A DNA stretch of 63,678 nucleotides, counting the filler, from Craspedostauros australis (lineage: Eukaryota), in assembly GCA_030167865.1 (NCBI GenBank). It is 11 parts of 11 records of this genome, joined end to end, with 100 filler letters (N's around TTAATTAATTAA, not from the genome) between each part and the next. Parts side by side here need not be neighbours in the genome. Positions count along the whole stretch, not along the records: positions 57,606 to 61,838 come from JALAGF010006163.1; 10 more parts are not named here. One strand, given 5' to 3'. Below, one piece after another: positions 13,886 to 63,678 of this stretch. Position 1 is the stretch's first letter; each line of letters opens with the position of its first letter. The notes beneath the pieces were generated by a model. The model was not told the DNA's origin, ran no database searches, and saw nothing but the letters and a program-made list of their open reading frames with translations. Position numbers and translations under genes: made by a program.

Positions 13886-13985
13886 NNNNNNNNNNNNNNN
13901 NNNNNNNNNNNNNNNNNNNNNNNNNNNNNTTAATTAATTAANNNNNNNNNNNNNNNNNNNNNNNNNNNNNNNNNNNNNNNNNNNN
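13886..13985. other. Artificial scaffold linker N44-TTAATTAATTAA-N44; the 12-mer also occurs at 18022, 31549, 36608, 45773, 48348, 52042, 55331, 57550 and 61883
   Basis: Identical 100-bp structure ten times; TTAATTAATTAA places stops in all six frames. Confidence 0.97.
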
Positions 13986-17977: not shown

Positions 17978-18077
17978 NNNNNNNNNNNNNNNNNNNNNNN
18001 NNNNNNNNNNNNNNNNNNNNNTTAATTAATTAANNNNNNNNNNNNNNNNNNNNNNNNNNNNNNNNNNNNNNNNNNNN

Positions 18078-21000
18078 AGGCATGGGTCTACCTCACTCTG
18101 TCTGAACCCCAATTTGAATAGGATGTCGACGAGCTTCTTGTTCCATTGTCTGGCACTCTGCACGAGTCCGTAGATGGTTTTCTTGAGNNNNNNNNNNNNN
18201 NNNNNNNNNNNNNNNNNNNNNNNNNNNNNNNNNNNNNNNNNNNNNNNNNNNNNNNNNNNNNNNNNNNNNNNNNNNNNNNNNNNNNNNNNNNNNNNNNNNN
18301 NNNNNNNNNNNNNNNNNNNNGTGAGCATGATACGGTAGGTTGCATCATGTATCACCGGTGCGTGGTGCGCTGAGAAGTCGACTCCTGCGATCTGCGAGTA
18401 TCCGCATGCCACGAGTCTGGCGCGGAATACCCCATTTCTCTTTTCCTTGAAGACCCATTTGGTCTTTACGCACCGCCGATTCCTCGGCATCCGGTCCTTC
18501 TTGATCTTTTCCCATACTTTCCTTCTGGCCATATCGTAGAATTCCTTGTTGNNNNNNNNNNNNNNNNNNNNNNNNNNNNNNNNNNNNNNNNNNNNNNNNN
18601 NGTGTTTCATGCCTTTCGGGCATTGCATGTAGATCTCTTCGTCGAGGTCTCCATGCAAGAATGCTGTCTCAAAGTCGATGATGATACTGTCTAGCTTCAG
18701 TATCATCTTCATGGTGAGCATGATACGGTAGGTTGCATCATGTATCACCGGTGCGTGGTGCGCTGAGAAGTCGACTCCTGNNNNNNNNNNNNNNNNNNNN
18801 NNNNNNNNNNNNNNNNNNNNNNNNNNNNNNNNNNNNNNNNNNNNNNNNNNNNNNNNNNNNNNNNNNNNNNNNNNNNNNNNNNNNNNNNNNNNNNNNNNNN
18901 NNNNNNNNNNNNNCCTTCTGGCCATATCGTAGAATTCCTTGTTGATGGCTTCTCGCCATTTCTTTCTCTTACTGGGGTCCGCGTGGTCCCAGCAGTCCTC
19001 GAATGTGGTTGGGTCCAATAGCATGGCGATACTCGCTAGCTCCATCCCATCCTCATTCTGTTCATTGTTCAATGCTTGGTCCGCAGTGATGATATCGTCG
19101 AGTCTCATCATTCCGTGAGGTGTATCTATCATCATACCTGCGATATCTCTGTTGAATGTTGACCCNTCCGCGTGGAAGTCGGGTCCTCCTGTGTCCGATG
19201 GGGATGCGATAGTCTCTTGGGGTGTCTCGTACCCTTCGTCTGTATTTGGTTCTGACTCATCGCTCGATTCGAGGTCTCGCTCTTCCTCTGGAATGGGTTC
19301 TTTGTTATACCCTGCGAGAGCACTCACCATCCTCGGTACGCATTGCACAGGTTCTGCGATAGGGGTCTGCTCCGGCTCATATTTGGCCTCTTCGTTAGCT
19401 CTCCCCTCATCGTCCCTTCCGAATTCGTCGCCGTCATTATCGTTCGACTCATTTTTCCCTTGGGTGGGGAGCAAGTCANNNNNNNNNNNNNNNNNNNNNN
19501 NNNNNNNNNNNNNNNNNNNNNNNNNNNNGCCGTCATTATCGTTCGACTCATTTTTCCCTTGGGTGGGGAGCAAGTCATCTTGCCCTCGCGCAGCGTCTTC
19601 TGTATCTTCTTTGTCTCCGGCTCTGCTGCTGCGATCTGCGTCGTCGGTCTCCATGCCTTTGATGGTCTCCGATCGTCGCTCCCAAACTGCTCTCGCGTGT
19701 CGAGTCTTCATACCCGATGTAGAGTCGTCATCTTCCAGATCTATCGATATTGATCTGTTGGCATTCTCGATACCTCTGAANNNNNNNNNNNNNNNNNNNN
19801 NNNNNNNNNNNNNNNNNNNNNNNNNNNNNNNNNNNNNNNNNNNNNNNNNNNNNNNNNNNNNNNNNNNNNNNNNNNNNNNNNNNNNNNNNNNNNNNNNNNN
19901 NNNNNNNNNNNNNNNNNNNNNNNNNNNNNNNNNNNNNNNNNNNNNNNNNNNNNNNNNNNNNNNNNNNNNATCCACGTAAGTTGGGATCCGGTTATTGAAC
20001 AGCACGCATGCTGGTTCTCTCGTTTTCGTCCCGATGATATTCTCCAGTTGGGTCGCGGTTCTGGCCGCCTCGGCCCATAATTTTCCTCGGACATTTTTCG
20101 GCAGGTGCGTGTGATTGAGCATGGCTCGGACTTTCCCGTACAACGTGGCGAATTTTCTTTCCACGCGACCGTTCTGTTGCGGCGTNNNNNNNNNNNNNNN
20201 NNNNNNNNNNNNNNCGAACCCTGCGACGAGCAGTTGCTTCTCCGCAGAATAATTTTCTCCTGCGTTGTCACATCTGATAATTTTCACTCGTGTTTGCTGG
20301 TTGGCGTGGAGCCACTTAAGCAACAGAATCATTTTTGTTCCAACCTCGCTCTTCTCCTTCAGGAAATAGCTCCAACAGTAGTCACTGTAATCATCGAGGA
20401 CTAGGAGCCAATACTTTCCTTGTCCGTAGCTGTGNNNNNNNNNNNNNNNNNNNNNNNNNNNNNNNNNNNNNNNNNNNNNNNNNNNNNNNNNNNNNNNNNN
20501 NNNNNNNNNNNNNNNNNNNNNNNNNNNNNNNNNNNNNNNNNNNNNNNNNNNNNNNNNNNNNNNNGTGACATTCCACCCGTATCGTCCCGCTGTGCGAGAG
20601 ATCGTGTAAGTGTCAACATGGCCTAACATTTTATGGATTTGATTGATGTCCACCGCGGTCTGGGTGGACACGCCAACATTGGCTTGATCGTGAGGGTGAG
20701 GGGCGGTGATCATGTTAACACCGCTCACGAANNNNNNNNNNNNNNNNNNNNNNNNNNNNNNNNNNNNNNNNNNNNNNNNNNAATTTTCACTCGTGTTTGC
20801 TGATTGGCGTGGAGCCATTTAAGCAACAGAATCATTTTTGTTCCAACCTCACTCTTCTCCTTCAGAAAGTAGCTCCAGCAGTAGTCACTGTAATCATCGA
20901 GGACTAGGAGCCAATACTTTCCTTGTCCGTAGCTGTGTGTCTGGACACTTGATGTGTCAATGAACAGGCGATCACCAACCTCCTTCGCTCGTGATTGGAG

Positions 21001-23955
21001 TTTCTTCGCCATGGCCTTCTGCCTTTGTTTGCCAATGACACAGTCCACACATGCATGCAATTTGCCTGTGACATTCCACCCGTATCGTCCCGCTGTGCGA
21101 GAGATCGTGTAAGTGTCAACATGGCCTAACATTTTATGGATTTGATTGACGTCCACCGCGGTCTGGGTGGACACGCCAACGTTGGCTTGATCGTGGGGGT
21201 GAGGGGCGGTGATCATGTTAACACCGCTCACGAAACCACTGTGGGTAGCCATAAGCGGGTCAAACGTAATACGTTGTCCGCGCTTCTCCAGGCTCATCAC
21301 AACACCGTGGTTGCTGATGTTGAAGCCGCTCTCAAGCGCTTTGTTGATGCTGAGGAGGTTCACCCACAAATTGGGCACGAACTTCACGTGCTTGAGGAGG
21401 ATGGTTGCGGTGGTACCGTTCTTCTGCATCACCACCATGCGCTTGTCGCCCACCTTTGTTGCCTTGATGTAGCGACCGCTGCCGATCTTGATGGAGTGGT
21501 CGGCCACGCGCACGTTGGTCATCCCCTCATCGTTGTTGGTCAGGTGGCACGAGGCACCTGAGTCGCCCAACCAAGTGCTTGCCTCATGGCGGTCTGGGGC
21601 GAGCGTGATGCGGCGTTCTTCGACGCCGTCGATGTCACTGATCACCATCGCCATGTCTGGTTGCGGGTTTCTCTCGCTGTAGAGAGGGAGTTCAGGGAAC
21701 TCTCCATGGTTGCGGACTCCGTACTGGCCGGGGTGGTACTTCCACATGACTTGGAGTGCTCCAAGCGAGGCCAGGCTTCTGATGAGTCCATGATGGATGG
21801 CTGGCAGCTGTTCTCTCTCCAGCCTTTCATTGATGAACGGCATGTTCTTCATTACGTTGAATGGTGTCATCATACCGATCTCGCGCAGGAGGAAGTAGAG
21901 GGTGCGAGCATCCATGCAAGTGTGTCTGTCTCTTGAGCTGTACTCCTTCACTGTGTCGAGGCACAGCAGGGCAAGCTCGCAGCGCACACTGTCAGCCGGC
22001 ATGGCGTTGCTCAATGAGTATCGCACTGCAAGTGCGAGTGACTCCTCTTTGGCAAGCATCGCGCGGCGGTCATCACGCTCCTTGTGAGTCGTCGGCTTTG
22101 CCACGTCCACTCCATCAGGTAGATCGATGAGGAATGACATGGCGGGGCAGTCCACACAGTAGGAGTAGATGTATCCTTGCTTGAAGCATAGTGGGCACGA
22201 CGCCCATCCTTGGTACAGAGCGCGCCCTGCTGTTTCGATCGACTTCTCGATGGGAGGCTTGTTGGTGGAGAGCGAGAAGACTGGCTCTCTGCAGATGTCT
22301 TCTGCTCCGATCACCATTGCCACTTCGTTGGTGGTCTCCTCTTTGGTGCTGACGAGGTCTTCGTCGTAGATGACGTCCTCGAAGAACCCGTCATCTTCAG
22401 TGGACTCGTCGTCTGACGGGAAGAGTTCGCGGTTGATGCGCTCGGCTGCGACCAGTGGTGGTCCGTAGTGACCGTACACCCCTAGGTGATGGGCCGCCCG
22501 CTCTTCTGCTGTCCATTCGCCACCTTGGTTTGGCGCGTTGCCTCCTTGGTCGGTCATCTCTTCGTCGGTGGACGTGAGGGCGAGATCTTCGGTGGTCTCC
22601 TCTTCGGGAGGCATCATGGCGAGGTTGTTGCTCATGTTTTTCTTGATGTTCGCGATTTCTTGGGTGGTCACGAGTCTTGGGTTGGTCACATTTTTTACCT
22701 CTGTCGAGTCAATTTCGAACTCGTTGGTGAGGAAGCACATCATTTCCGTGCTATCCATGGACTTGTCGTCTTCGGGCAACCAGATGGGCTCCTCGATCAT
22801 GGCTAGGGCAACGTCGTTGGCCTTCTCGTTGGAGGGCAACCACATCTCCTCGTCAACTTCAACGAAGGAGTCGTAGCCTGCCACATCGTCTTCGGTAGTC
22901 CGCCACATGTGTTCTTCAACCATCATGAGGGCGACGTCTGTCTCCTCCTCCATGCCGTCGGTCGCCACGTTTGCGGCCTCGGCTTCTCGCATCGCTGCTT
23001 TCAACTTGAAGCAGTCGAGGATCTTGTGCCCTTTCTTACCGCAGTACTTGCAGTTTCCGTTGAACTTGTTCTTGGCGGGGGAGTCTCCTTTCTTGTTGTT
23101 CTTCTTCAAGGCCTTGTTGCTTTTGTTCTTTGGGGGAGAGCGACAGTCCGCCTTCTTGTGCCCGTAGGCACTGCAGTTGCGGCAATATCCTTTGAAACCG
23201 CCAGTGGCAGCGAGAGCCATTTCCTCTTTGGTGTCGCTCTCGCGACGGTTGCTTCCTTGCTTGATGTGACGTGCGTCGTAGGTGGCACTCACAGCTTCAC
23301 GGATGTCCTCGATTGACATCGTGTCTTCGATGCCGGTGAACTTGAGTTCGATGAGCTTCACATCCATCTTGTAGTCCCTTGCGAGGGCGTTGAGCACGAG
23401 CATGTGGTACTGAGTCATGTCCAAGTCGACGCCGGCGTGGGAGAGGCGTCCACGGAGCACTTCCATCTCGGTGAGGAACGTGTCCGGGTGTTCTCCCTTC
23501 TTCATGCGCATCCCGTTGAGCTGCGCCAACAACTTTGCCTTCATAGGCGCAGTGCGCTGCTCGTAGATACGCTCAAGAGCCTTCCATGCCTTACGTGGGT
23601 CTCCTCCCTTGTAAGCGCTGCTCTTGCATCCCAACACAGCCATGAAGGCAACATTGCCTTCGGTGGTCTCATGGCTAATAGCCATGGTCAGTTCTTCAAA
23701 CGCGTACTTCGCCAATGCCTTCTTGTACTCAGCCTCCTCTCCAGGAGTCATGTCACTCGGCTTCTTGGCTTCCTCATCCTTCTTCTTGCCTTTCACGGGG
23801 AGGGCAGCAGAGGAGGGGACAAACGGTTCTTCCTTCACAATCACATCACTCATGTCCTTGAGATACAAGTCTCCATAGCCCTTGCGGTTGGCGCGGGCCA
23901 GGAACTTCGCACTCCAAGCTTTCCAGCTGGACCGCTTGCTGTCGAACATGATCAT
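18078..23955 (-). CDS. Gag-Pol polyprotein, family B (single frame from gag into integrase; gapped and partly duplicated further 3')
   Basis: Two CCHC knuckles (CRNCSAYGHKKADC, CKYCGKKGHKILDC), protease WLGDSGASCH, HKMLGH...CVDC, integrase IRCDNAGEN/TPQQNGRVER, RT KWVFKEK...ARLVACGYSQ, DFETAFLHG, IYGLVQSARQW. Confidence 0.93.
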
Positions 23956-24066
23956 GTAACGATCAGTCTCCTAGGAAGGATGTCATGGTGATGATGGTGA
24001 TAGGATGTTTGTTGCTGTGCTGGTGATGGTAGAAACGTAGGATTTCAATTGTAACGTTTCGAAACG

Positions 24067-31504: not shown

Positions 31505-31604
31505 NNNNNNNNNNNNNNNNNNNNNNNNNNNNNNNNNNNNNNNNNNNNTTAATTAATTAANNNNNNNNNNNNNNNNNNNNNNNNNNNNNNNNNNNNNNNN
31601 NNNN

Positions 31605-32327
31605 GCAGCGTTCATCGTGGAAGCCCACGAACCCAACGGACACGATGCGTTCCAGGCACTCGTGCGAACATACGAGTCGCCCGAACACAAAGCTGAAGCC
31701 ATCGTCGAAGAAGAACAGAAGATCGCCGAGCTCCGTTACGACGGATCCGAGCCCTTCCCAGTATTCGTCAACGCTTTCTCCAAATGCATCCGCGTCATGG
31801 AGCAGAACGGGAAGCAAATGACAGACCAACAGAAGATCGCAAAGTTCTTCCGCAACATCACGGACGATCGCTTCACGAGCGAGATGTCCAGATTCCGTCA
31901 CACGGAACAGTCCTTTTCCGCCATCCGGGAGGCATTCATGCAACATGATGCGCTCCTCGCGAAGTCGGAAGGGCACTACTCTCCCAAGCGCAACCGTNGC
32001 TACCANCAGAAGGACACCAAGGACGACCGCAAGAGGCCACGCGAATCCTCCAAGTGGGATCGCAAGGGCGCCGCATCATTTCGGTTGCCGGACTCCGTCT
32101 TCCGTCGCATGCCGGCGAGCACTCAAGTGCTCCTCGTCGAAGCGTCTCGTCACTTCCGTACCACCGGGAAACCAATCGATGAAGACACACTCAAGCGCAA
32201 CAAGCCAACAGAGTATGCGCGCAACCTCGAGTTGCCACTGACCCAGCGAGGACCCAAGCGGCCTCGCACGGGCGACCACAAGACCGGACGACCCGGCACC
32301 CAAGGACCATGGAACGCCGGTTCTTGA
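31605..32327 (+). CDS. Gag (5'-partial), family D
   Basis: NGHDAFQALVRTYE...LRYDGSEPFPVFVNAF...KIAKFFRNI resembles copia capsid; ends at TGA 32325-32327. Confidence 0.8.
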   Translation, partial: AAFIVEAHEPNGHDAFQALVRTYESPEHKAEAIVEEEQKIAELRYDGSEPFPVFVNAFSKCIRVMEQNGKQMTDQQKIAKFFRNITDDRFTSEMSRFRHTEQSFSAIREAFMQHDALLAKSEGHYSPKRNRXYXQKDTKDDRKRPRESSKWDRKGAASFRLPDSVFRRMPASTQVLLVEASRHFRTTGKPIDEDTLKRNKPTEYARNLELPLTQRGPKRPRTGDHKTGRPGTQGPWNAGS

Positions 32328-35300
32328 CAATCAAAGACGGGCACAACTCGCCGTCAGTCGGAGATTGTCATCCACCTCAAACCCCGCGACTGTAGGGGGG
32401 CGAGCGTGACGACCGCAGCGGGAATGCCCGGACGTGCACGTCCGGTGGCACCACAAGAGTCCCGTCCGTGCACAACCCACCCGACAGTGGAGCACTGCAT
32501 CCGAAGGGCAAGAGTAACGAACAATAGCCAAGGCTTTATCATCCTAGACTCAGGGGCGGACGGAGACATCGTTCATGCGTCGGGCTGGGAGGTGACCCAC
32601 ACACACCAACAAGAGTTTCGTGCCCGAGGGGCGACAATCAGCTCACCAATCGAGACATTCCAGATGGTTGACGCGGTGGCAGCATACGAGCCCCCATCAG
32701 GCGGCGTGATCCTCATCAAAGCGAACTACGTGGCTCTCGACAAGCATCCACAGCAGACGGAATCACTGTTTAACACACATCATATGCGCGCGTCCGGACT
32801 GAACGTCTACGATCGCCTAATCGAACATCAGGGACAGCAGCGGGTCTCATCGGACGACATCAGCATAACACTGGAGAACCATGACGGCAACACGCTCCGA
32901 ATTCCCATCAGAAAGCCGACAGCCCACGAGATGGCAACGGCGCAGCATATCATCATATGCGACAGACATCAGCGTCTACGACGCAACGCAGGTCGGGTCG
33001 ATTTCACACGAATCTTCCGGCACCTTCCGCCACACGTGGTGGAGAAGACAATGGCGGCGTCCACTCAGCTGGCAGATACTCCGATCGAGGCAGAGTCAAG
33101 GCTCATCCCGCGGCAGTATCGAGCGCAGCGAGCAGGAGTGCTGCAACCCAACAGGATCGACGGCAGAGTTGACACGGACACGTTCTTCTCCACCGTCCAG
33201 TCCATCCGGCACTACAAATGCTTTCAGCTGTTCTCGCACCAACAATCGAAATTCATCTGGGCGAAGCCATTGGGCCGCGAGGCCATGGCACCAGGGGCGC
33301 TCACGGACTTCATCATAAGCATCGGCGCTCCGGACCTACTCGTATCAGACAATTCGCAGGTGCAGTCGGGCAAGGCATGGAAAGCGGTCACATCCCGCTA
33401 TTTGATCAAGCACCAGTTCACTGTGCCCATGAATCAGAACCAGAATCACGCAGAACGGGCGATCGGCAATGTCAAGCGGCATGCATACCAGCTTCTGTGG
33501 GCCGCCTCGGCGCCACTCTCATTCTGGTGCTACGCTGTGCAACACGCGATCGACACTTGGAACTACACGGCAAAGGCGAGCCTCCAGTGGCGTACGCCAA
33601 TCGAGATTCTTCGAGGCAACACTCCCGACATCTCGATGTTTCGCTTCACGTTCTTCCAGCCCATATGGTTCTTCGAGCCCATGACCAAATTTCCCAACCA
33701 TCCATTCAAACCAGGGTACTTCCTTGGCATCGCATGGAACCACGGTGATCCATTCACCTACACCATATGGTCACCGCGAGGCGATGACATCACGAAAGGC
33801 ACCGCGCTTGTGCGCAACATCGTCAAGCCGCGTGTCGTCGAAGACGCCATCCCTCCACGCATCACCGACGCGGAGGTCAACCGCATCGCTCGGCTCGATA
33901 TCATCCACACCACTACGCGCGGCGAATCCGGCGAACGCGCCAGGACCAAGACATTGCCGGCGGAACTCGCTCGACAGGTCCGTGAGGCCATCGACGCGAT
34001 TGCTGTGCAGTCAGGGGCGGCGGCAGGTCCACCGGCGACGGCGACGCAGGAGGTCAGGGGCGTATCCGAGAATAACACGCCAGCAGGCACGGATGACCGA
34101 TGGTTCGGTCAGCCAAACATAATTCCCAACGACGGCGACAGGCCGGAACATAATGCGCACGGCGTCATCTCCGATGACGACGGCGACGCATCCACGGGTA
34201 CCATCTCTGAGGAGACCGATGACTCCGAAGTCACGGCGATGCCAGATCCTCCGGAGCACCGCTCTCAGGGGCGTGAGTCCTCTCTCATNGAGAGAGAGCA
34301 TGACGAGCTGTTCCGAAATCAGGTCGAAAACGAGAAATCTGACGACTTGGCAATCAACTCCATCCTCAGCCACGCATTCAGAGACGGACATCTACACTTC
34401 AATGTGCAATGGTCCAATACTGAAACGCAATGGTTCCGATATGACGTGATCCGAGCAGACCATCCCGAAATGGTAGCACGATACATCATTGACAACGAAC
34501 CACGACGCAACGGTCGACACAATCGACAATCGCAAGTCCTACTCAAGTGGGCGAAACATGCACTGCGAGCCATCAGGCGCAGAATCCGAAGAATCGAGCG
34601 AACTCGAGTCTTCACCATGGATGACGATGACAACATCATCATCATCAGACGAATCCGTCCAGGCAAGAAGAAGCCGAAACGAGACTACTTCGCCACTGTG
34701 TATCAATACGGTGTCGAGGTCCCACGCAACATGAAACATGCATTGCAACTGGATGAGGCCAACGGGGATCACCAATGGAGAGACGCAGCGAAGAAAGAAA
34801 TCGACGCATTGATCGAACTCGACTGCTTCACATTCCACCCATCAACATACCAACCACCAGCAGACTACCAGAGCACGAAACTCCGACTCATATTCGCGGT
34901 CAAGCAAGACCTGCGACGTAAGGGGCGCTTGGTAGCAGGCGGGCATCTCATCGAGCTGGCGGACAACATCCGAGTCTACTCTTCCACTGTCAAGTCGACA
35001 AGCGTCCGCATTCTCGATGCAATAGCAGATGCAAACAACCTGCAACAGCTATGTGGCGACGTCGGCAATGCATTCGTCAATGCATACACCAATGAGAAGA
35101 TCTATGCGACAGCAGGAAAGGCATTCGACGACAAAGAAGGACAAGTCATTGTGCTCAAGAAGGCACTGTACGGTCTTCGGTCGAGCGCTCAACGATTCCA
35201 TGCACACTTCGCTAATACTCTCTCATCAATGGGATTCACGCCATCACGGCATGATCAGGATGTATGGATCCAGCGCAGAGACGACTCTGGCTACGACTAC

Positions 35301-36563
35301 ATCTGTACCCACGTGGACGACTTCAAGATAGTCGCCAAAGACCCAGANCAGTACATGAAAGCGATCCAACAAGTCTACACAGTCAAAGANATCGGACCGC
35401 CGAANTACTATCTTGGCAACGATTATTCCAGGAACGCAAAAGGAAAATGGAGCGTCGGATGCGACAAATACATTTCCAATGCNCTGGACAAGATCGAACG
35501 GCTCCATGGGGAACTGCATGACCAACATGTGCCCATGAAGAGCAAGGATCATCCGGAAACGGATGATACACCACTACTAACACCTGACGAGCAACAACAG
35601 TTCCAGCAGCTCATCGGCATGCTGAACTGGGTTGTACAGCTCGGACGTTTCNNNNNNNNNNNNNNNNNNNNNNNNNNNNNNNNNNNNNNNNNNNNNNNNN
35701 NATGGATCCAGCGCAGAGACGACTCTGGCTACGACTACATCTGTACCCACGTGGACGACTTCAAGATAGTCGCCAAAGACCCAGACCAGTACATGAAAGC
35801 GATCCAACAAGTCTACACAGTCAAAGACATCGGACCGCCGAAGTACTATCTTGGCAACGATTATTCCAGGAACGCAAAAGGAAAATGGAGCGTCGGATGC
35901 GACAAATACATTTCCAATGCNNNNNNNNNNNNNNNNNNNNNNNNNNNNNNNNNNNNNNNNNNNNNNNNNNNNNNNNNNNNNNNNNNNNNNNNNNNNNNNN
36001 NNNNNNNNNNNNNNNNNNNNNNNNNNNNNNNNNNNCAGTTCCAGCAGCTCATCGGCATGCTGAACTGGGTTGTACAGCTCGGACGTTTCGACGTCGCATT
36101 TGCCACCTCTTCTCTCTCACGTTTCACATCGACACCGCGAAAAGGGCATCTCACGAGAGCACTTAAGATATGGGGATACCTCAAGAACAAATCCACGCTG
36201 AGAACCATGATCGACTCAAAACCTATCGCGTTCGAGAACTTCAATCCAGAATCGCCCAACCCGGAGATGGTTGCACAGATGAAGGAAGAGTACCCCGAAG
36301 CGGCTGAGGACATTGACGATCAGGCACCNNNNNNNNNNNNNNNNNNNNNNNNNNNNNNNNNNNNNNNNNNNNNNNNNNNNNNNNNNNNNNNNNNNNNNNN
36401 NNNNNNNNNNNNNNNNNNNNNNNNNNNNCTGGGGCGCACCCCAGTGCACTTCTCCAGCAAACGCCAGACATCAGTCGCAACATCAACATACGGAGCAGAA
36501 TTCAATGCAATGCGCTCGGCAACCGAGGAAATCATTGCACTCCGATACGCACTCCGATCTCTG
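32328..36563 (+). CDS. Pol, family D, in frame with gag after the TGA
   Basis: IILDSGADG, VDTDTFFS, LVSDNS, QNHAERAIG, YGVEVPRN, RKGRLVAGGH, GDVGNAF, ALYGLRSS, THVDD, SKRQTSVATSTYGAEF. Confidence 0.93.
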
Positions 36564-36837
36564 NNNNNNNNNNNNNNNNNNNNNNNNNNNNNNNNNNNNN
36601 NNNNNNNTTAATTAATTAANNNNNNNNNNNNNNNNNNNNNNNNNNNNNNNNNNNNNNNNNNNNCAACTGATGACAGAGACCCAGGTGTTTTGTAGTGGGA
36701 GAATGAAGAGTGGTGGTATTGATGGTGAGTACAGCCACATGTCCATGGTGGAGCTGTACAAGGTTATGGATCAGGATGAGGGTACAGCACAAGTGGATTC
36801 ATACATGGATCGGGCAACATTGGTGGACTTCGTCCGC

Positions 36838-45728: not shown

Positions 45729-45828
45729 NNNNNNNNNNNNNNNNNNNNNNNNNNNNNNNNNNNNNNNNNNNNTTAATTAATTAANNNNNNNNNNNNNNNN
45801 NNNNNNNNNNNNNNNNNNNNNNNNNNNN

Positions 45829-48303: not shown

Positions 48304-49013
48304 NNNNNNNNNNNNNNNNNNNNNNNNNNNNNNNNNNNNNNNNNNNNTTAATTAATTAANNNNNNNNNNNNNNNNNNNNNNNNNNNNNNNNNNNNNNNNN
48401 NNNTGACCGGAATGACGGAGCCTTGCCAGTGGAGTTGCTGACTGCGAGATGACGAACCTTCGGATCTGCTGGCATTCTGTTGTTGCTTCGCACGGTCATC
48501 ACGTTGTCTTGTGGAGGAAGAGTCACACGATGTCTCTTCCTCTGTTGTGACTCGTTTTGCATGACGTGGAATCCGTCCCCTGTGACGTAGAAGACGGATC
48601 AGCGAGAGTAAACACGAAATAGCTCTAAATGTACAATCGCCGTTTCTCCCAAAAGCAAGCAAACCAGTGGCAACAAGGGGCCAAAACTCTACAACTAGCG
48701 TTATCGTGACCCAGTTTACGGTTTGGCGCAGGTCGTACGATGACGCACGCAGCAGTCAGCGAGATGATGGCGACTGTCAGAAAATTGCAACCGCGTTAGC
48801 GGCAATCGTGCTTGGGAACCGCGGTAAAGACCACATATTGGTCGGTTTGCTGATGGGACTCCAATAGTAGTCCAAGTAATCCGTTGCAACAAAGTAGACT
48901 ATCTAGAAGGAACTACCGTAGACACCAAATCGTCCTAGTGTGATCATGGTGATTAGAGTTATTCGCTAATAGTGTTATTCTTGTTCGTGTGTTCAGGGGT
49001 GGTCGGGATAGTC

Positions 49014-51581: not shown

Positions 51582-52097
51582 NNNNNNNNNNNNNNNNNNN
51601 NNNNNNNNNNNNNNNNNNNNNNNNNNNNNNGTCCCACTTAGTAGTAACAAATAGCCCAACTTTAGCAAGCACAAAAGGTTCATCCCACATGCCCCCCTTG
51701 CCTGTTTGAGTGAGTGTTGTTAGGGTGTCCTGATTACGGGGTAGTAATTTTAGTGCTTTGTTTTGCTGTTGGAGGTTTGAAGGACTACCTTGTTGTGGTT
51801 GCATGTGGGACGCACTGAATAGCCAGTCCAGGAGGACGGAGACGAGGAGACACCAACGCTTGCCCAAGAGAGTCCCGGTTTACATCATGGACAAACGAAG
51901 GGCAACATCAGCCAGGCATCTTGGCCACCCAACCACAACGACGTTGAGCGGAGGGACGGGTTTGTGGTCGCCACCACTGCCCACAACGGTAGCGATGNNN
52001 NNNNNNNNNNNNNNNNNNNNNNNNNNNNNNNNNNNNNNNNNTTAATTAATTAANNNNNNNNNNNNNNNNNNNNNNNNNNNNNNNNNNNNNNNNNNNN

Positions 52098-55286: not shown

Positions 55287-55469
55287 NNNNNNNNNNNNNN
55301 NNNNNNNNNNNNNNNNNNNNNNNNNNNNNNTTAATTAATTAANNNNNNNNNNNNNNNNNNNNNNNNNNNNNNNNNNNNNNNNNNNNGATGACCAGGCACA
55401 AGCGATTTTCTCCCTTCCCGCTCTTTCCCATCATCGCCTCTCCATCATCACTACATTGGTGCTCCTTGA

Positions 55470-56985: not shown

Positions 56986-57605
56986 TGGCGGAAGAGTCCG
57001 GAGTGAGTGCGAGCATACATACATGCTACACACATGCATACATCCATGCATGTATACGAACGAATGGACGTATTGTACGGATTCAGCAGGCGAAGAACCC
57101 AACATGGAAGACGTCAGTGAAGGCCACCAGAGGGCAATGAGTGCGATGATCCGGGTGACTCACCGTTGTATTCCCCATGGCGCTTGCTGTTGGGACTGCA
57201 CTCGCAGCGATCATCGCCGCAAATAGTGCATCAGCGTCGAATGGCCACAGTGCCTTCATGATCAACATGCCAGCGTTGTGATTGATGGAAGAGAAGAACG
57301 GCCAATGCTGTATCGATTGCACTGGAGTACGGATGCCCATGATTTGTGTTGAACAAAGTTGCCTTCGCCTCCTTGAGATTGTCTGATCAAGTCTGTGCTT
57401 CTCACCACCTGCGCCGTCACGCCACGATCCAGGAGGCAAGTCTTCGTCTGCTTGCTGCGGAATGTTGCTTCATGAGATGCCACAAAACAGATATCGCCAA
57501 ATCAANNNNNNNNNNNNNNNNNNNNNNNNNNNNNNNNNNNNNNNNNNNNTTAATTAATTAANNNNNNNNNNNNNNNNNNNNNNNNNNNNNNNNNNNNNNN
57601 NNNNN

Positions 57606-60600
57606 TGCGCCTGAGTTGTCTTCAAATGCCTTGCAGTAGACTTTGGGCTTGTATCGGTTTGGCGTGATTCCCAGGTCACACATCTCTTGTAGCATGTGCA
57701 TCATGGGTATGACTTCACGCAGAGCTGTGGATAGGCTGATGAATTCTGCCTCGGTGGTACTCAAAGCGATCTCCGTCTGCAGCTTGGATGCCCACGTCAC
57801 TGGACATCCAGCGAACATGATGATGTAGCCGGTTCTGGACTTGGATGTGCTGGGGTCTGTTGCCGCTGTCTCCTTGTTCCATAGTCCCACAAAGTCTGCG
57901 TCTGCATAGCATTCGAAACCCTTGTCCTTGGGATCGAGGATGATTCCCTCGTCTCTGGTTGATCTCAGGTATCGTATGATGTGATGGACTGCATTGGTGT
58001 GCGATTTCTTTGGGTCTTGGCAGAATCTGGCTGCCTGGTGCACTGCATATGCTATCTCTCCTCTCGTGGATTTCTCAAGGAAGTTGAGCTTTCCAATCAC
58101 TGATCTGTAGTGCCATGCCGCATTGTGTGGTGGTCCATCTTCGTCCTTGTTGAGGATGGTGGTCGATTGTGCTGGTGTGTCGCGAGGCCGAGTGTTTGGT
58201 CTGAAGTTGACGTCTTCGACCAGTTGATCGATGAGATGTGGTTGTGCCAGCTTGATTCTTCCGTCCTCCATTTTGGTGATGTGCACGCCGAGGTAGTCTG
58301 TGATGTCTCCCTCGTCAGTCATGTTGTATTTGGACTGCATGTTGGCGAGGATCTCTTCCACTTGCTCCTTGTCTGGCCCAGCGAGGATGCCGTCGTCGAC
58401 GTATACAAGGAAGATTGTCCTTCCCTTGTAGTAGACGCATCTATCGTACTTGCTTTGCACGAACCCCATGTCGAGTAGGCCTTTGTGCAGATGTTCGTTC
58501 CACACACGCCCTGCCTGTTTCTGTCCGTACAGGTTCTTCACGAGTTGGAGGACGTGGGACTTGTTGTCGCCCCCTTGTAGTTTCACTCCAGTAGGTATTT
58601 CCATGTATATGGTGGTCTCAACGTCAGCCTGCGGGTATGCCAGGATGAAGTCCACCTGCTTGGTGTGCCAGTCGAGCATGATGCTGAGTATGAGGACCAG
58701 CCGGATGGATATCCAAGTGACCACTGGGGCGTAGGTTTCCCAGTAGTTCACTCCCTTCTCCTGCTGACCGCCATAGACGTTCAGCCGAGCCTTCCATCGA
58801 TATACCTCTCTCGTCTTGAGCCGTCTCTTTCGTTTCATGGACCATACCGATGATAGCACCTTGTGCTCCTTGGGAACCTGGGTGCGTGGGATCAACTTCC
58901 AGTGACCGTTGTCGTGATGTGCATCGATCTCCTTCTGCATGGCCTCTTTGAATTTGTCTCGATCCGGCTGTGCCATTGCTTGGTGATAGTACATCGTATC
59001 TGGGTCCGCACTGGCTGCAAATGCTAGTGGGTCATCATATGCCGTAGGGTCGAAGCTGTCATGATCAAGATGGTAGTTGGCCACCTCGTACGCCGCTGGG
59101 ATGGCGATTACGCCTGTCTCGATGTTCTCCAATACCTTGCGCGATGGTGTTCTGTTCCTGCTCGATCGCCTGAGGCCTGTTGGTGCCATTGTGGGGTGTT
59201 GCCCTGCAACCGCGCCGTCCTCTCCGATATCTGATGGTTGCTCACCGATGCCGATCTGGTTCTGATCCATTGTTGGTGCGTTCTGTTGCAGTCTCTCGTC
59301 CACCATGGCATCAGTCTCGATGTCTTGGTTCTGCAGAGTCTCCTCGGTGTCGGGTTCTGCCACAGTCGCTGATTGCTTGTTGATGTATTGTTCAGGAGCT
59401 CCCTCGGGCATCGTGATGCGTTTTGTCTTGCTCTTGCTGTGGCCCAGCTGTGGACTTAGCTTTGCTAGCTGTTTCCATTTGCTGTGGTTGTTGTCCATGT
59501 CTGGAGCCACGGTTTGGAACATGTCGTCACATTTGATGTGGAATTGAGGAGATACCAATCCGGTTCTTGGATTGAGTATCAGAGCAACTGACTTGGCGTG
59601 AACTGGAGATATTCCGATGTAGATGCCAAGCCGTGAGCGTGATAGCCACTTGGGTTGGCTTCCTCCTGATGCCAGCCTTGAGTTGAGTACGTATGTTGGG
59701 CATCCGAAAGTGTGGAAGTGTTTCAGCTGTGGTCTGACCTGTGCACCTGTGAATCTTTCGATGGGTGTTTGGCCTTGATGCTTGACCATTGGCGCCGAGT
59801 TGATGACTTCGTTAGCCATTCGAAGAGCGTATGGCCAGAGCGCGATGGACATTGCTGCCTTCCATCGGATGGATGCATGCAATATCATGGTGCGAGCCGG
59901 TTCCATGAGATCCCTGATGCGCCTTTCGGCTACTCCATTCTGGAAGTGTGCCTCTGCCGCGCAGAAGGTGATTGTCTGTCCCGTCCGATCGATGTGATCT
60001 CGCCATAGATTCTCAGCGAACCTGCCGTTGTCTGCATGATAATGCTTGACTTGGACATGGTGGCTGCGAGCATAGGCTTCGAAGGTCTTCTTTGCGTTCA
60101 GCGTCTCTTCAGCGTTTGTGCTCTTCTGTAGGTGCACGTAACTGAGTCTGCTGTAGTGGTCCACAAATATTGTAGCTGCCCGATACCTCTGGTTGGTCAG
60201 CTTGCCTTTCACTTGACCAATGAAGCCAGGAGTGGGTGACTCGAGTTGATCCACGGATATGCAGTCGCCAGGCTGGTTGATGGGCACTGGTCTGATGGTG
60301 CGCTGTTGCTTGGCTCGAGTTCGCCATGGTCTCTTGGTTGCCTTGCCGTACGAGCAGCTGGCGCACACTGGTAGTTGGCAGTGCTTGAACTTCGATGGCA
60401 GTTCTCCCGTGTTAGCCATGTGTCTCATTTTGTTGAATGAGATGTGGCCGAGCCTGTAGTGAACCTGAAGCATTTCTGCTGTGTTGGTTCCTGCGTATTC
60501 GTTGTTCGTGTGGATGGTTCTTCCGGCTGGTGAGTCCCTGAAGTCGATTTGCATGGGGATGCTCCTCTCTTTCGTGGTGGATGGCTTGTCTGTTTGGAGC

Positions 60601-61580
60601 CTTTCTGTTGTTGCTCGCTGTCGTGCCGGAAGTGGTTGTTGCTGGTGGGAGACTTCGTCTGTCGACTCATCGTCTCCCTCGGAGTCCGTGATGTGATCTT
60701 GGTTTGAGGTTTCGTGAACCGATTCCTCATCGCTCACGATGTTGGACTCGCTGTGAGGTTCTGTGGTGACCTCTGGAAGCATGTTGTTTGCCATGCAGTA
60801 GGTTGCAAAGCACTTGATACCTGGTGCCGACTGAAGCATTCCGATGTTGGACTTGCTCAGTGGTATGGTTCTCTTGTGCTTGCGGTTGTCCCAAAAGAGC
60901 TCCATCTTGTCACCAAGTGTCAGACACCCAGTTCCGTGTGTGTCTCCCTTGGATTGTGCCCAGTGTTGTGGGCACAGTAGTCGGAATGGTAGATCAGGTT
61001 GATATGCCACGTTCTCAAGTGTGATGGTGTGCTTGATGCCGAGGTCGTCTTGTATCTTCCATCTCACCTTGCCCATGTATCTGATACGGGCCTGTCCGAC
61101 ACCTCTGACCTGTTGGTTGACTTGTTTTGGTTTGCCAACGAAGTCGCTGAGTGTGTTGGTGAACGAGGTTGACGCGCAGTTGTCGACAGCGATGTTGAAC
61201 GAGTCGGAGTCGAATCTTGCTGTGGATGTTGCGTCTCTTCTGTGCTTGGGTTGAGCTTGTTGTGCCATCGCCCAGAGCTGAGTGAGGGGACCCGTCGGTC
61301 TCTTTGTCACTATCTTGGCTCTGCGATGTTTGGTGCTGTAAGCGTAGATGCGTCGGCACCTGTTGCGGCTTGGCTTGAGCCTGCGGCGCTTGAAGCATTG
61401 GCGACGGATAACCTTACCGGTTGCTGTCGTCATTGCTGCTCCAACCGCCCACACAATCTTTCCTGTGACATGCATCACAAGCTCTGCGGTGATGAGCAGG
61501 AGCCATGTGATGATGTGTTGGATTGAGTTGAGGAGTGGTCTGCAGATAGCAAGAGCCATTCTTGCGATCCGACCTGAGTT
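57606..61580 (-). CDS. Pol, family F, in frame with gag after TGA; first ATG at 61559
   Basis: IAVDNCASTS protease, HYRLGH...CASC, ISVDQLES, HYHADNGRF, QNGVAERRI, KARLNVYGGQQ, LYGQKQAGRVW, VYVDDGI, YADADF, ALSTTEAEF, FEDNSGA. Confidence 0.95.
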
Positions 61581-61838
61581 TCAGTACTCTTCCTCGTCCG
61601 AGTCTTCCATGATTTGATACATGGCGACTCTGAGCTTGTCCGCCTTTGCCTTGCTGAGTGGCTTGTCGGCTTCCTTCTCTTTCTTCTTGTCCTTCGACAT
61701 GCGGCATTCCTTGGGATCGTGACGGACCCACTTGCCCTTGTCGCCGTGGTTCGGGCACCACCAGATGTCCTTGCCATTCTTGTCGGACTTCTTGTGCGGT
61801 TCCCCGGCGTTGGGAGGAGTCAGGTACCAGGGAGTATC
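61581..61838 (-). CDS. Gag C-terminus, family F (no ATG-led ORF in the track; read directly)
   Basis: DTPWYLTPPNAGEPHKKSDKNGKDIWWCPNHGDKGKWVRHDPKECRM...EDSDEEEY* with a C-x2-H-x8-H-x4-C finger. Confidence 0.85.
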   Translation of the reverse strand, partial: DTPWYLTPPNAGEPHKKSDKNGKDIWWCPNHGDKGKWVRHDPKECRMSKDKKKEKEADKPLSKAKADKLRVAMYQIMEDSDEEEY

Positions 61839-61938
61839 NNNNNNNNNNNNNNNNNNNNNNNNNNNNNNNNNNNNNNNNNNNNTTAATTAATTAANNNNNN
61901 NNNNNNNNNNNNNNNNNNNNNNNNNNNNNNNNNNNNNN

Positions 61939-63678
61939 AGGCGTGTCAGAGAACAACGTGTCCATGGAAACAACATCGTGTAGTCGACTGACATTGGCTG
62001 CGGGGAATCTAGATTTATAGTGCTTACGCATGGGATAACGCTCAGACATGCGGTACCACTGGGTAGTACATGCAAGAGTGTCACGCACGCGGTCTGCTGG
62101 AATCCACCCNNNNNNNNNNNNNNNNNNNNNNNNNNNNNNNNNNNNNNNNNNNNNNNNNNNNNNNNNNNNNNNNNTTGCCTTCTCCCCATCCCCGAGCGTT
62201 GCAGCGGATTGAACGTACTGAACGCACTTGGAGATGGTGATGTCGATGTCGTTGTCGTCGCCTTCGCCGCGTTCGGTTGCGGGAATGTTGTCCAGATCAG
62301 CCTCTCCGTCCAGGACAGATGGGTCCCATTCTTGGTCGGAAGTGAAGAACACGTGTGGCAGATCATCTAGCTCTGCCTGAGTTGGCCTGTGCATGTCCAT
62401 GTATGCGAGGCCTTGACGCACGGTGAGCGGGATGACGAATCCGTCTGGCGTGACGATGGTCTGCCGACCGCNNNNNNNNNNNNNNNNNNNNNNNNNNNNN
62501 NNNNNNNNNNNNNNNNNNNNNGGTCCGCTGGAATCCACCCAAAGTACGGCCGTAGCGCATGGAAGTTGGGCGCTTTACCCACGATGTTGCGTGGCCCGGC
62601 CTTGACCGCCTTCTCCCCATTCCCAAGCGTTGCAGCGGACTGAGTGTACTGAACGCACTTGGAGATGGTGATGTCGATGTCGTCGTCTTCGCCGCGTTCG
62701 GTTGCGGGGATGTTGTCCAGATCAGCCTCCCCGTCCAGGACAGATGGGTCCCACTCTTGGTCGGANNNNNNNNNNNNNNNNNNNNNNNNNNNNNNNNNNN
62801 NNNNNNNNNNNNNNNNNNNNNNNNNNNNNNNNNNNNNNNNNNNNNNNNNNNNNNNNNNNNNNNNNNNNNNNNNNNNNNNNNNNNNNNNNNNNNNNNNNNN
62901 NNNNNNNNNNNNNNNNNNNNNNNNNNNNNNNNNNNNNNNNNNNNNNNNNTTGGCAGAATGGATGGTGCGCCCTTTCCCGTAGTTGGCGTACTGATGGAAC
63001 CAACCGATCACCGGCCCTGAGGTGGTCTGGATGACAGCGGTGGCTGTGACCAGCGCCAGATCCTTGATCTCTGCGTCGCCGATTCCAGAGACATCAGCAC
63101 GGTTGGACGTGGACTCCATCACCAGCATNNNNNNNNNNNNNNNNNNNNNNNNNNNNNNNNNNNNNNNNNNNNNNNNNNCCCGTAGTTGGCGTACTGATGG
63201 AACCAACCGATCACCGGCCCTGAGGTGGTCTGGATGACAGCGGTGGCTGTGACCAGCGCCAGGTCTTTGATCTCTGCGTCACCAATTCCAGAAACATCAG
63301 CTCGGTTGGACGTGGACTCCATCACCAGCATGTCATCGCCAACGAGACCGCCGTTCGCACCTCCATCCACCAATGCGCCTTGCACAGCCACGTTCGTGTT
63401 GTTGAACGTGTACGATACGTTCGTGTGAGACAGGGTGTAGGTGCGACCGTCAATGACGAGGGTAGCCGGCGGGCTCCCAGACGCGCTAGACATGGCATTG
63501 GAAAGCATACGGTTGATTGCTGTGCCAGCGGTAGAACTAGACTCGTTATTGTTACTACCATTGTCGTTGGTCTGGGTGTCCTGTTGGTCGTTCCGGTTGG
63601 ATGTGGATCCACTGCGGTTGGTGTTGTTGGCGGAACGCCTAGGCTTGTCCTTCTTACCACGTCCAGACTTGGCTCGCC
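61939..63678 (-). mobile_element. Ty1/copia family E fragment (gag end, protease, integrase start), gapped and partly duplicated
   Basis: GALVDGGANGGLVG, FHQYANYGKGRTIHS, IVTPDGFVIPL, FTSDQEWDPSVLD, HYKSRFPAANV, VSMDTLFSDTP. Confidence 0.9.

Follow-up and report, generated by a model that had tools for sequence, protein, structure and literature searches.

Control of the Gag to Pol ratio in copia elements is, to our knowledge, known for only a few models: Ty1 uses a +1 frameshift, Drosophila copia uses splicing, and Tca2 bypasses a UGA in a way that is still unresolved. In murine leukaemia virus (MuLV), the reverse transcriptase (RT) binds eRF1. Tca2 (pCal), a Ty1/copia element of Candida albicans, carries gag and pol in one frame with a UGA between them and a predicted 3' RNA structure, and in MuLV an in-frame stop between gag and pol, followed by a spacer and a 3' structure, gives about 5% readthrough (PMC2194720; this and the other sources are cited for the excerpts drawn on here). 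The Ty3/gypsy elements Tj1, Tcry1 and Tosmo1-3 of fission yeasts have a strictly conserved GAA-TGA-CT at the gag-pol stop, which their authors read as a readthrough site, and transposition of Tj1 requires the stop (PMC10085805). In alphaviruses and several plant viruses, a UGA is followed by a conserved 3' stem-loop, with readthrough up to 10-fold higher (Firth et al., 2011, PMC3159437). An in-frame gag-pol stop with programmed readthrough is already known, then, in retroviruses and in some long terminal repeat (LTR) retrotransposons, including the copia element Tca2. Here, a stretch of 63,678 nucleotides (nt) from Craspedostauros australis (assembly GCA_030167865.1), referred to as the window, was analyzed for a partial Ty1/copia element that carries a UGA between gag and pol. 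The best reading of this locus, to which we give a probability of about 0.75 on the sequence evidence, is programmed UGA readthrough that would make Gag-Pol, aided by a 3' stem-loop.

The element lies on the minus strand of a 4233-nt scaffold (57606..61838, from JALAGF010006163.1), delimited by joiners at 57506-57605 and 61839-61938. It comprises the 3' end of gag, the UGA and a pol without its 3' end, and the scaffold carries no LTRs. Since both scaffold ends fall within coding sequence, one in gag and the other in pol, gag is represented by its last 85 codons alone (61584..61838, minus strand), the 5' part being lost at the scaffold end, and the end of pol is missing. The minus strand reads ...GAG TAC TGA AAC TCA GGT CGG ATC GCA AGA ATG GCT..., with the TGA at 61583-61581 (61581..61583, minus strand) as the proposed readthrough site. 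The gag codons are open in the frame of pol, and pol is open from the codon after the UGA to the scaffold end (57606..61580, minus strand), a total of 1325 codons, or 1318 when counted from the ATG at 61559. This gag-pol frame contains one stop in the 1411 codons of the scaffold, versus 34 and 26 stops in the other two frames. An earlier reading of this DNA from its sequence alone (the sequence-only reading) had proposed an in-frame UGA between gag and pol of a copia element with a single visible copy; both statements were confirmed, as no second copy of the family was found within the window.

The stop is followed by a 6-nt spacer, AACUCA (61575..61580, minus strand), and by a 38-nt hairpin that has 14 bp, a 1-nt mismatch and, on the 3' side, a bulge of 3 nt (61537..61574, minus strand). 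The structure obtained with RNAfold, GGUCGGAU.GCAAGA[AUGGC]UCUUGC.AUCU...GACC, begins 6 nt past the stop and consists of a 5' arm (61574-61560), the loop AUGGC (61559-61555) and a 3' arm (61554-61537); it is the same interrupted stem of about 14 bp, with the first AUG of pol in its loop, that the sequence-only reading had drawn. Only nested structures were folded, and within that scope the hairpin is a simple bulged one. The 71-nt stretch after the stop folds with an energy of -19.3 kcal/mol (z = -2.19), and 5 of 200 dinucleotide shuffles were equally stable. The first in-frame AUG of pol (61557..61559, minus strand) is located 24 nt (8 codons) past the TGA, in the same frame. Its presence in the loop is probably incidental, since the relatives described below have their first AUG at varying positions. 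A search of the scaffold against Rfam gave only a chance-level match to a small nucleolar RNA (E 0.75).

In the proposed mechanism, most ribosomes would end at the UGA (61583-61581) and release Gag, and a minority would decode it with a near-cognate tRNA and continue through the linker, protease, integrase, RT and RNase H to give Gag-Pol; this decoding by a minority would set the Gag to Pol ratio. The stem-loop, placed 6 nt downstream, would meet the ribosome with the UGA in its A site and would favor the near-cognate tRNA over the release factor. It is the likely stimulator in the window, where the local UGA-A context is not a known leaky one. The occurrence of readthrough, its rate, the amino acid inserted and the stimulation by the hairpin are what we infer from these features.

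The sequence-only reading had named the conservation of the UGA and of the frame as a check on recoding, and this was analyzed in metagenome relatives. A protein search gave five pol-only relatives, and their alignment, scanned over metagenome contigs, gave 80 loci with 35-52% pol identity. The relatives are seen in marine and freshwater metagenomes; no relative of the element was found in the viral contig collection, nor in the genome contig collection when a single-protein query was used. The 80 loci and the window scaffold included 67 with a protease match on the plus strand, and the 14 of the 80 loci that had no such match were left out. Eleven of the 67 had too little DNA upstream, their frame being open as far as the contig start, and 56 had an upstream in-frame stop; these were merged at >=90% identity into 50 groups, 45 of which were informative for the counts on stop signals.

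Going upstream from the protease, the first stop in frame was TGA in 47 of the 50 groups, TAG in two and TAA in one. In 38 of the 50 groups (37 with TGA and 1 with TAG) the same frame was open for 150-624 codons upstream and ended at that stop, and in seven more, the window included, it was open to the contig start. The chance that an untranslated frame stays open for 150 codons is approximately (61/64)^150, roughly 7e-4. The complete pol frames (n=14) end in TAA in seven cases, TAG in four and TGA in three; as they end mostly in TAA or TAG, the TGA between gag and pol appears to be chosen and not simply the default stop. A quick tree of the 33 rows with >=900 pol codons showed long branches, with a median of 0.84 changes per site, and TGA throughout. 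The window element falls inside a 24-row clade (Shimodaira-Hasegawa-like approximate likelihood ratio test, SH-aLRT, 94), its position within it being unresolved, and the tree of these 33 rows does not place it as sister to the loci that share its hairpin. These sequence comparisons support the view that the in-frame UGA is a conserved feature of the recoding type and not an accident.

The remaining five of the 50 groups are exceptional and look degenerate or truncated. L018 is degenerate, with a TAA right after a TAG, and L079 and L080 have short upstream frames. L021 was shown directly to be a 5'-truncated, L002-like copy with only the 3' half of the hairpin, and its odd TAG row is explained by this truncation. 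In L075, the upstream frame (333 codons) is offset from pol into the +1 frame, and its terminal TAG comes 13 nt past the upstream TGA of pol (L075:1644-1660); L075 represents a frameshifting variant or, alternatively, a damaged copy. Moreover, in L004, which was merged with L003 and L007, gag has moved to another frame near its end. In L024, a TAG (L024:4884-4886) takes the place of the TGA between a 449-codon gag and pol, and a strong 14-bp hairpin (-20.6 kcal/mol) begins 1 nt past it, a natural swap of the stop codon within the same layout.

The surroundings of the stop were compared in the 45 informative groups. The base after the stop was C in 24, T in 10, A in 8 and G in 3, and 'TGA CT' was found in 12. 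The last gag codon was GAA in 20 groups and TAC in 8, and AA preceded the stop in 20. Judged by sequence, leaky contexts of a known kind are common in the clade, and the GAA-TGA-C(T) context is found in many relatives of the window element. In 18 of the 45 groups, the minimum free energy (MFE) of the 75 nt past the stop ranked within the lowest tenth of equally long windows from that element (binomial p about 1e-7). When hairpins beginning <=12 nt past the stop were considered, they fell within the most stable tenth of controls from the same element in 20 of the 45 (binomial p 2.6e-9), and within the most stable fifth in 29.

A hairpin homologous to that of the window was found in seven relatives, L002, L003, L004, L007, L009, L010 and L041. 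The window and these seven share the ending (D/E-rich)-Y-TGA-A and the 6-nt spacer, followed by an outer GGYC/GRCC stem, a 4-nt 3' bulge (UGCU, UGCA, UGUA or UGUU) and a variable inner stem. In a structure-blind MAFFT alignment, an 11-pair structure was paired in 96.5% of cells, versus 45-60% when the partners were slid. Five of the 11 pairs had changed on both sides, and none of 500 shuffles reached these values of pairing and double change; the search for compensatory changes in the stem, also suggested by the sequence-only reading, was in this way positive. With some of the compensatory changes the encoded residues change too (GL to GR, W to R), as would fit selection that acts on the pairing instead of the peptide. 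The covariance model of the hairpin scored the window at 54.4 bits, the window sequence being part of the training alignment. Over all 81 sources it matched only the eight training sequences and the truncated L021, so that the hairpin motif appears specific to one subgroup. The other subgroups have non-homologous hairpins at the same place.

Several results weigh against readthrough stimulated by the stem-loop. The hairpin had been called strong, which proved to be overstated: by the 75-nt MFE measured past the stop, this region ranks at the 42nd percentile among control windows of equal length from its own element (22 of 52 controls were as stable), and the hairpin at its position ranks at the 15th. 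The stop context of the window, UAC-UGA-AAC (UGA-A), is not one of the leaky types UGA-C, UGA-CU or CARYYA. About 10 of the 45 relatives have no hairpin near the stop. The 11-pair structure tested was derived from the same sequences, and four of the five double changes separate the window from the rest and amount to one lineage. Over the 75 nt that follow the stop, nucleotide identity shows no rise (mean 63% versus 56-69% in other bins; 10 related pairs). Both genes are cut by scaffold ends, and this copy may not be intact. Finally, Tca2 is the single copia element for which such a layout has been put to the test, and its junction alone drove no readthrough in Saccharomyces cerevisiae, though Pol was produced from the gag-UGA-pol RNA (PMC2194720).

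The last of these points, together with the ordinary energy of the window hairpin and the relatives that have none, favors an alternative in which the stop is bypassed non-canonically, through distant sequences or element proteins as proposed for Tca2, or in which a short intron containing the stop is removed, the hairpin serving packaging, dimerization or the like. The enrichment of hairpins at a fixed place after the stop and the frequency of leaky contexts speak against such a bypass. Splicing, in turn, would need neither the same frame nor an open and constrained frame right after the stop, and no conserved GT...AG was evident by eye around the stop in the aligned relatives. We therefore regard this alternative as unlikely, although it survives better than the others.

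A slightly less probable explanation is that pol is made alone, with no Gag-Pol fusion, by termination-reinitiation or internal initiation at the loop AUG at 61559. The in-frame AUG 8 codons past the stop, within the hairpin loop, fits this explanation, as does an AUG <=10 codons past the stop in 17 of the 45 relatives; in Tca2, a minor promoter at the junction gave downstream expression independent of the stop (PMC2194720). Across the relatives, however, the first in-frame AUG lies 3-145 codons past the stop (median 15), and in those sharing the hairpin it is found at +12 or far away, at +48 in L009, +60 in L003, +73 in L041 and +145 in L010. Even so, no further stop interrupts the frame before that first AUG, over as many as 145 codons, and the frame appears to be under purifying selection there: the ratio of nonsynonymous to synonymous substitution rates (dN/dS) over the first 45 codons after the stop was 0.25-0.71 in the eight pairs with measurable dS, from small counts, and a ninth pair had no synonymous change. 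The pairs with values below 1 include L003-L009 (first AUG at +60 and +48) and L009-L010 (+48 and +145). A translated stretch without AUG that is kept in the frame of gag is predicted by readthrough, and not by reinitiation, an internal promoter or splicing. Likewise, if pol were translated independently, it would not stay in the frame of gag in 38 of 50 groups, nor across relatives with 35-52% pol identity. The recoding proposed by the sequence-only reading was thus favored by the TGA, the frame and, for the most part, the hairpin kept in relatives, and its other option, termination-reinitiation at the looped AUG, was not.

Two further explanations are very improbable. Many copia elements have a single frame, and the TGA might be a chance nonsense mutation in a dead copy of an element that normally has gag and pol fused; a copia element elsewhere in the window (20725-23970, minus strand) does have gag and Pol_BBD in one frame, and the copy studied here is truncated. 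Against this, a TGA is present at the homologous place in 47 of 50 relative groups, it is the only stop in the 1411 codons of the frame, and the gag tail ends as in the relatives, acidic and then Y or E. A variant genetic code, as in some protists that reassign UGA, would make gag-pol one frame read through an ordinary amino acid codon, but each element, of about 1500-2000 codons, has just one in-frame TGA, in every case where gag meets pol, and TGA also ends 3 of 14 complete pol frames.

The identity of the upstream frame as gag was also analyzed. The 85 residues of the window align with the C-terminal part of the first open reading frame (ORF1) of 20 relatives, which is 400-620 amino acids long. 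They contain a zinc-knuckle-like motif, C-x2-H-x5-W-x2-H-x4-C (CPNHGDKGKWVRHDPKEC; 61704..61757, minus strand), in which the C, W, H and C columns are invariant and one H is nearly so in an alignment of 22 gag sequences; by its sequence, this motif would be expected to bind metal. After it, the tail of gag is acidic, with Y or E as the last residue before the stop, in the window and the relatives alike. No Pfam match was obtained at E <= 0.01 for the gag fragment of the window or for the ORF1 of eight relatives. The L010 ORF1 was modelled with AlphaFold from an alignment of 22 sequences (predicted local distance difference test, pLDDT, 80.5), and the model was compared with known capsids by VIA-align. 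It matched the Drosophila copia capsid 8vvw_A (Z 11.0, root-mean-square deviation (rmsd) 6.4, 182 aligned) and the C-terminal domain of the Ty1 capsid (CA-CTD) 9rxy_A (Z 10.6, rmsd 2.5, 88 aligned), and also the capsids of PEG10, dArc1 and PNMA2; a Foldseek search of the same model against PDB gave nothing at E <= 0.001. According to this model, the ORF1 upstream of the stop is a real Gag with a predicted retroelement capsid fold, the fold having been examined in L010 only.

The pol frame encodes, in this order, a hydrophobic and basic linker, protease, integrase, RT and RNase H. Pfam identified the GAG-pre-integrase domain (integrase zinc-binding region) at 60342..60494, minus strand (PF13976 gag_pre-integrs, E 3e-09, pol residues 356-406), and a Copia-type RT at 58197..58880, minus strand (PF07727 RVT_2, E 6.5e-44, pol residues 894-1121), the latter with 150.8 bits against a cut-off of 31.6. 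Matches to Pol_BBD (pol residues 125-199, 18.4 bits) and SH3_retrovirus (pol residues 609-667) were under and just under their cut-offs, respectively, and a DNCAS protease-like motif and a YVDD motif were read directly in the translation. With a Copia-type RT and an integrase ahead of the RT, the element belongs to Ty1/copia (Pseudoviridae). At the start of the part that would be reached by readthrough (61360-61580, minus strand), the encoded peptide is hydrophobic and transmembrane-like, and a basic cluster such as RRQCFKRRRLKPSRNR comes after this stretch. When the first 100 codons after the stop were examined in L001-L080, a 19-residue hydrophobic window (Kyte-Doolittle mean >=1.6) was found in 37 of 45 relatives, the window element reaching 1.56. 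A hydrophobic stretch between Gag and protease is unusual for that region.

The window is a chain of unplaced scaffolds linked by ten 100-nt joiners of the form N44-TTAATTAATTAA-N44, which have stops in all six frames (13886-13985, 17978-18077, 31505-31604, 36564-36663, 45729-45828, 48304-48403, 51998-52097, 55287-55386, 57506-57605 and 61839-61938). As these joiners separate scaffolds, features should not be read across them; many other N runs, of 1-191 nt, are gaps inside scaffolds. Two other copia elements were found in the window. The second copia (31605-36563, plus strand) has an RVT_2 domain and is very distant, with 20% pol identity to the element studied here. Its approximately 240 readable gag codons are in frame with pol (32328-36611), with a TGA between them (32325-32327), and right after this TGA stands CAATCA, a match to the CARYYA readthrough context that PMC2194720 quotes. 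It is probably the element that the sequence-only reading had called family D, and its gag-TGA-pol layout bears out the suggestion that UGA recoding recurs in these elements. The third copia (20725-23970, minus strand) has Retrotran_gag_2 and Pol_BBD in one open frame, with no stop between gag and pol, and its RVT_2 is in the next frame piece (18026-20818, minus strand). As predicted from these sequences, UGA recoding is recurrent but not universal among the copia elements of this genome.

The DNA above 61938 belongs to a different scaffold (61939-63678, minus strand), which holds tandemly duplicated pieces of another repeat that is separate from the element studied here. Its direct repeats are 62976-63128/63179-63331 at 96% and 62235-62340/62660-62765 at 92%, and it encodes ...IPLTVRQGLAYMDMHRPT...SDQEWDPSVLDGE...RFPAANVSRLHDVVSMDTLFSDTP. 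The piece 61939-62109 had no match in Pfam.

The clade-wide pattern, in which TGA is nearly universal, the signal is of two kinds and the linker is hydrophobic, was not found described in the literature searched on copia readthrough, on CoDi and other diatom copia elements or on GalEa, which is not proof of its absence. Whether a deep, species-rich clade of protist Ty1/copia elements relies almost universally on UGA readthrough, with a GAA-UGA-CU-type context and a stem-loop as interchangeable signals and a product that starts hydrophobic and then basic, seems to us a matter of even odds. If this is true, no retroelement group would offer a larger natural series of readthrough signals. With dozens of stop contexts and hairpins that vary naturally over a span of roughly 35-50% pol identity, the clade would form a comparative series for the leakiness of UGA in eukaryotes, and this series would also allow the open question of Tca2 to be revisited in other hosts. 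For annotation, gag and pol of these elements would be joined across the TGA, and treated neither as two genes nor as a pseudogene.

Finally, the element was compared with the known systems. The CoDi copia elements of diatoms could be of the same lineage, and neither the identity of a stop nor a structure is described for them in the excerpts of PMC2806351 consulted. The UGA followed at a short distance by a stem-loop resembles the arrangement of alphaviruses and plant viruses; these, however, are RNA viruses in which the structures are longer, lying within about 150 nt of the stop, and synonymous sites are markedly conserved, and no such conservation peak is seen in the relatives of the window element. 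With Tj1, Tcry1 and Tosmo1-3 the element shares the in-frame TGA, and GAA-TGA-C(T) recurs in many of its relatives. These belong to another superfamily and have a short linear signal, whereas the window has TAC-TGA-AAC and a hairpin. Moloney murine leukaemia virus has the same succession of gag, stop and pol in frame, spacer and 3' structure, but it is a retrovirus without sequence relation to the window element, has UAG instead of UGA and needs a pseudoknot, which in this type of signal is of the H type and lies about 8 nt past the stop. With Tca2, compared by layout, the element shares the superfamily, an in-frame gag-UGA-pol, a short spacer and a predicted 3' structure (PMC2194720). The two differ in that the excerpts on Tca2 describe an 8-nt purine-rich spacer and a predicted pseudoknot, whereas the window has a 6-nt spacer and a simple bulged hairpin. 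The stimulation exerted by the window stem-loop would be comparable to that of the 3' structures of MuLV, the alphaviruses and several plant viruses.

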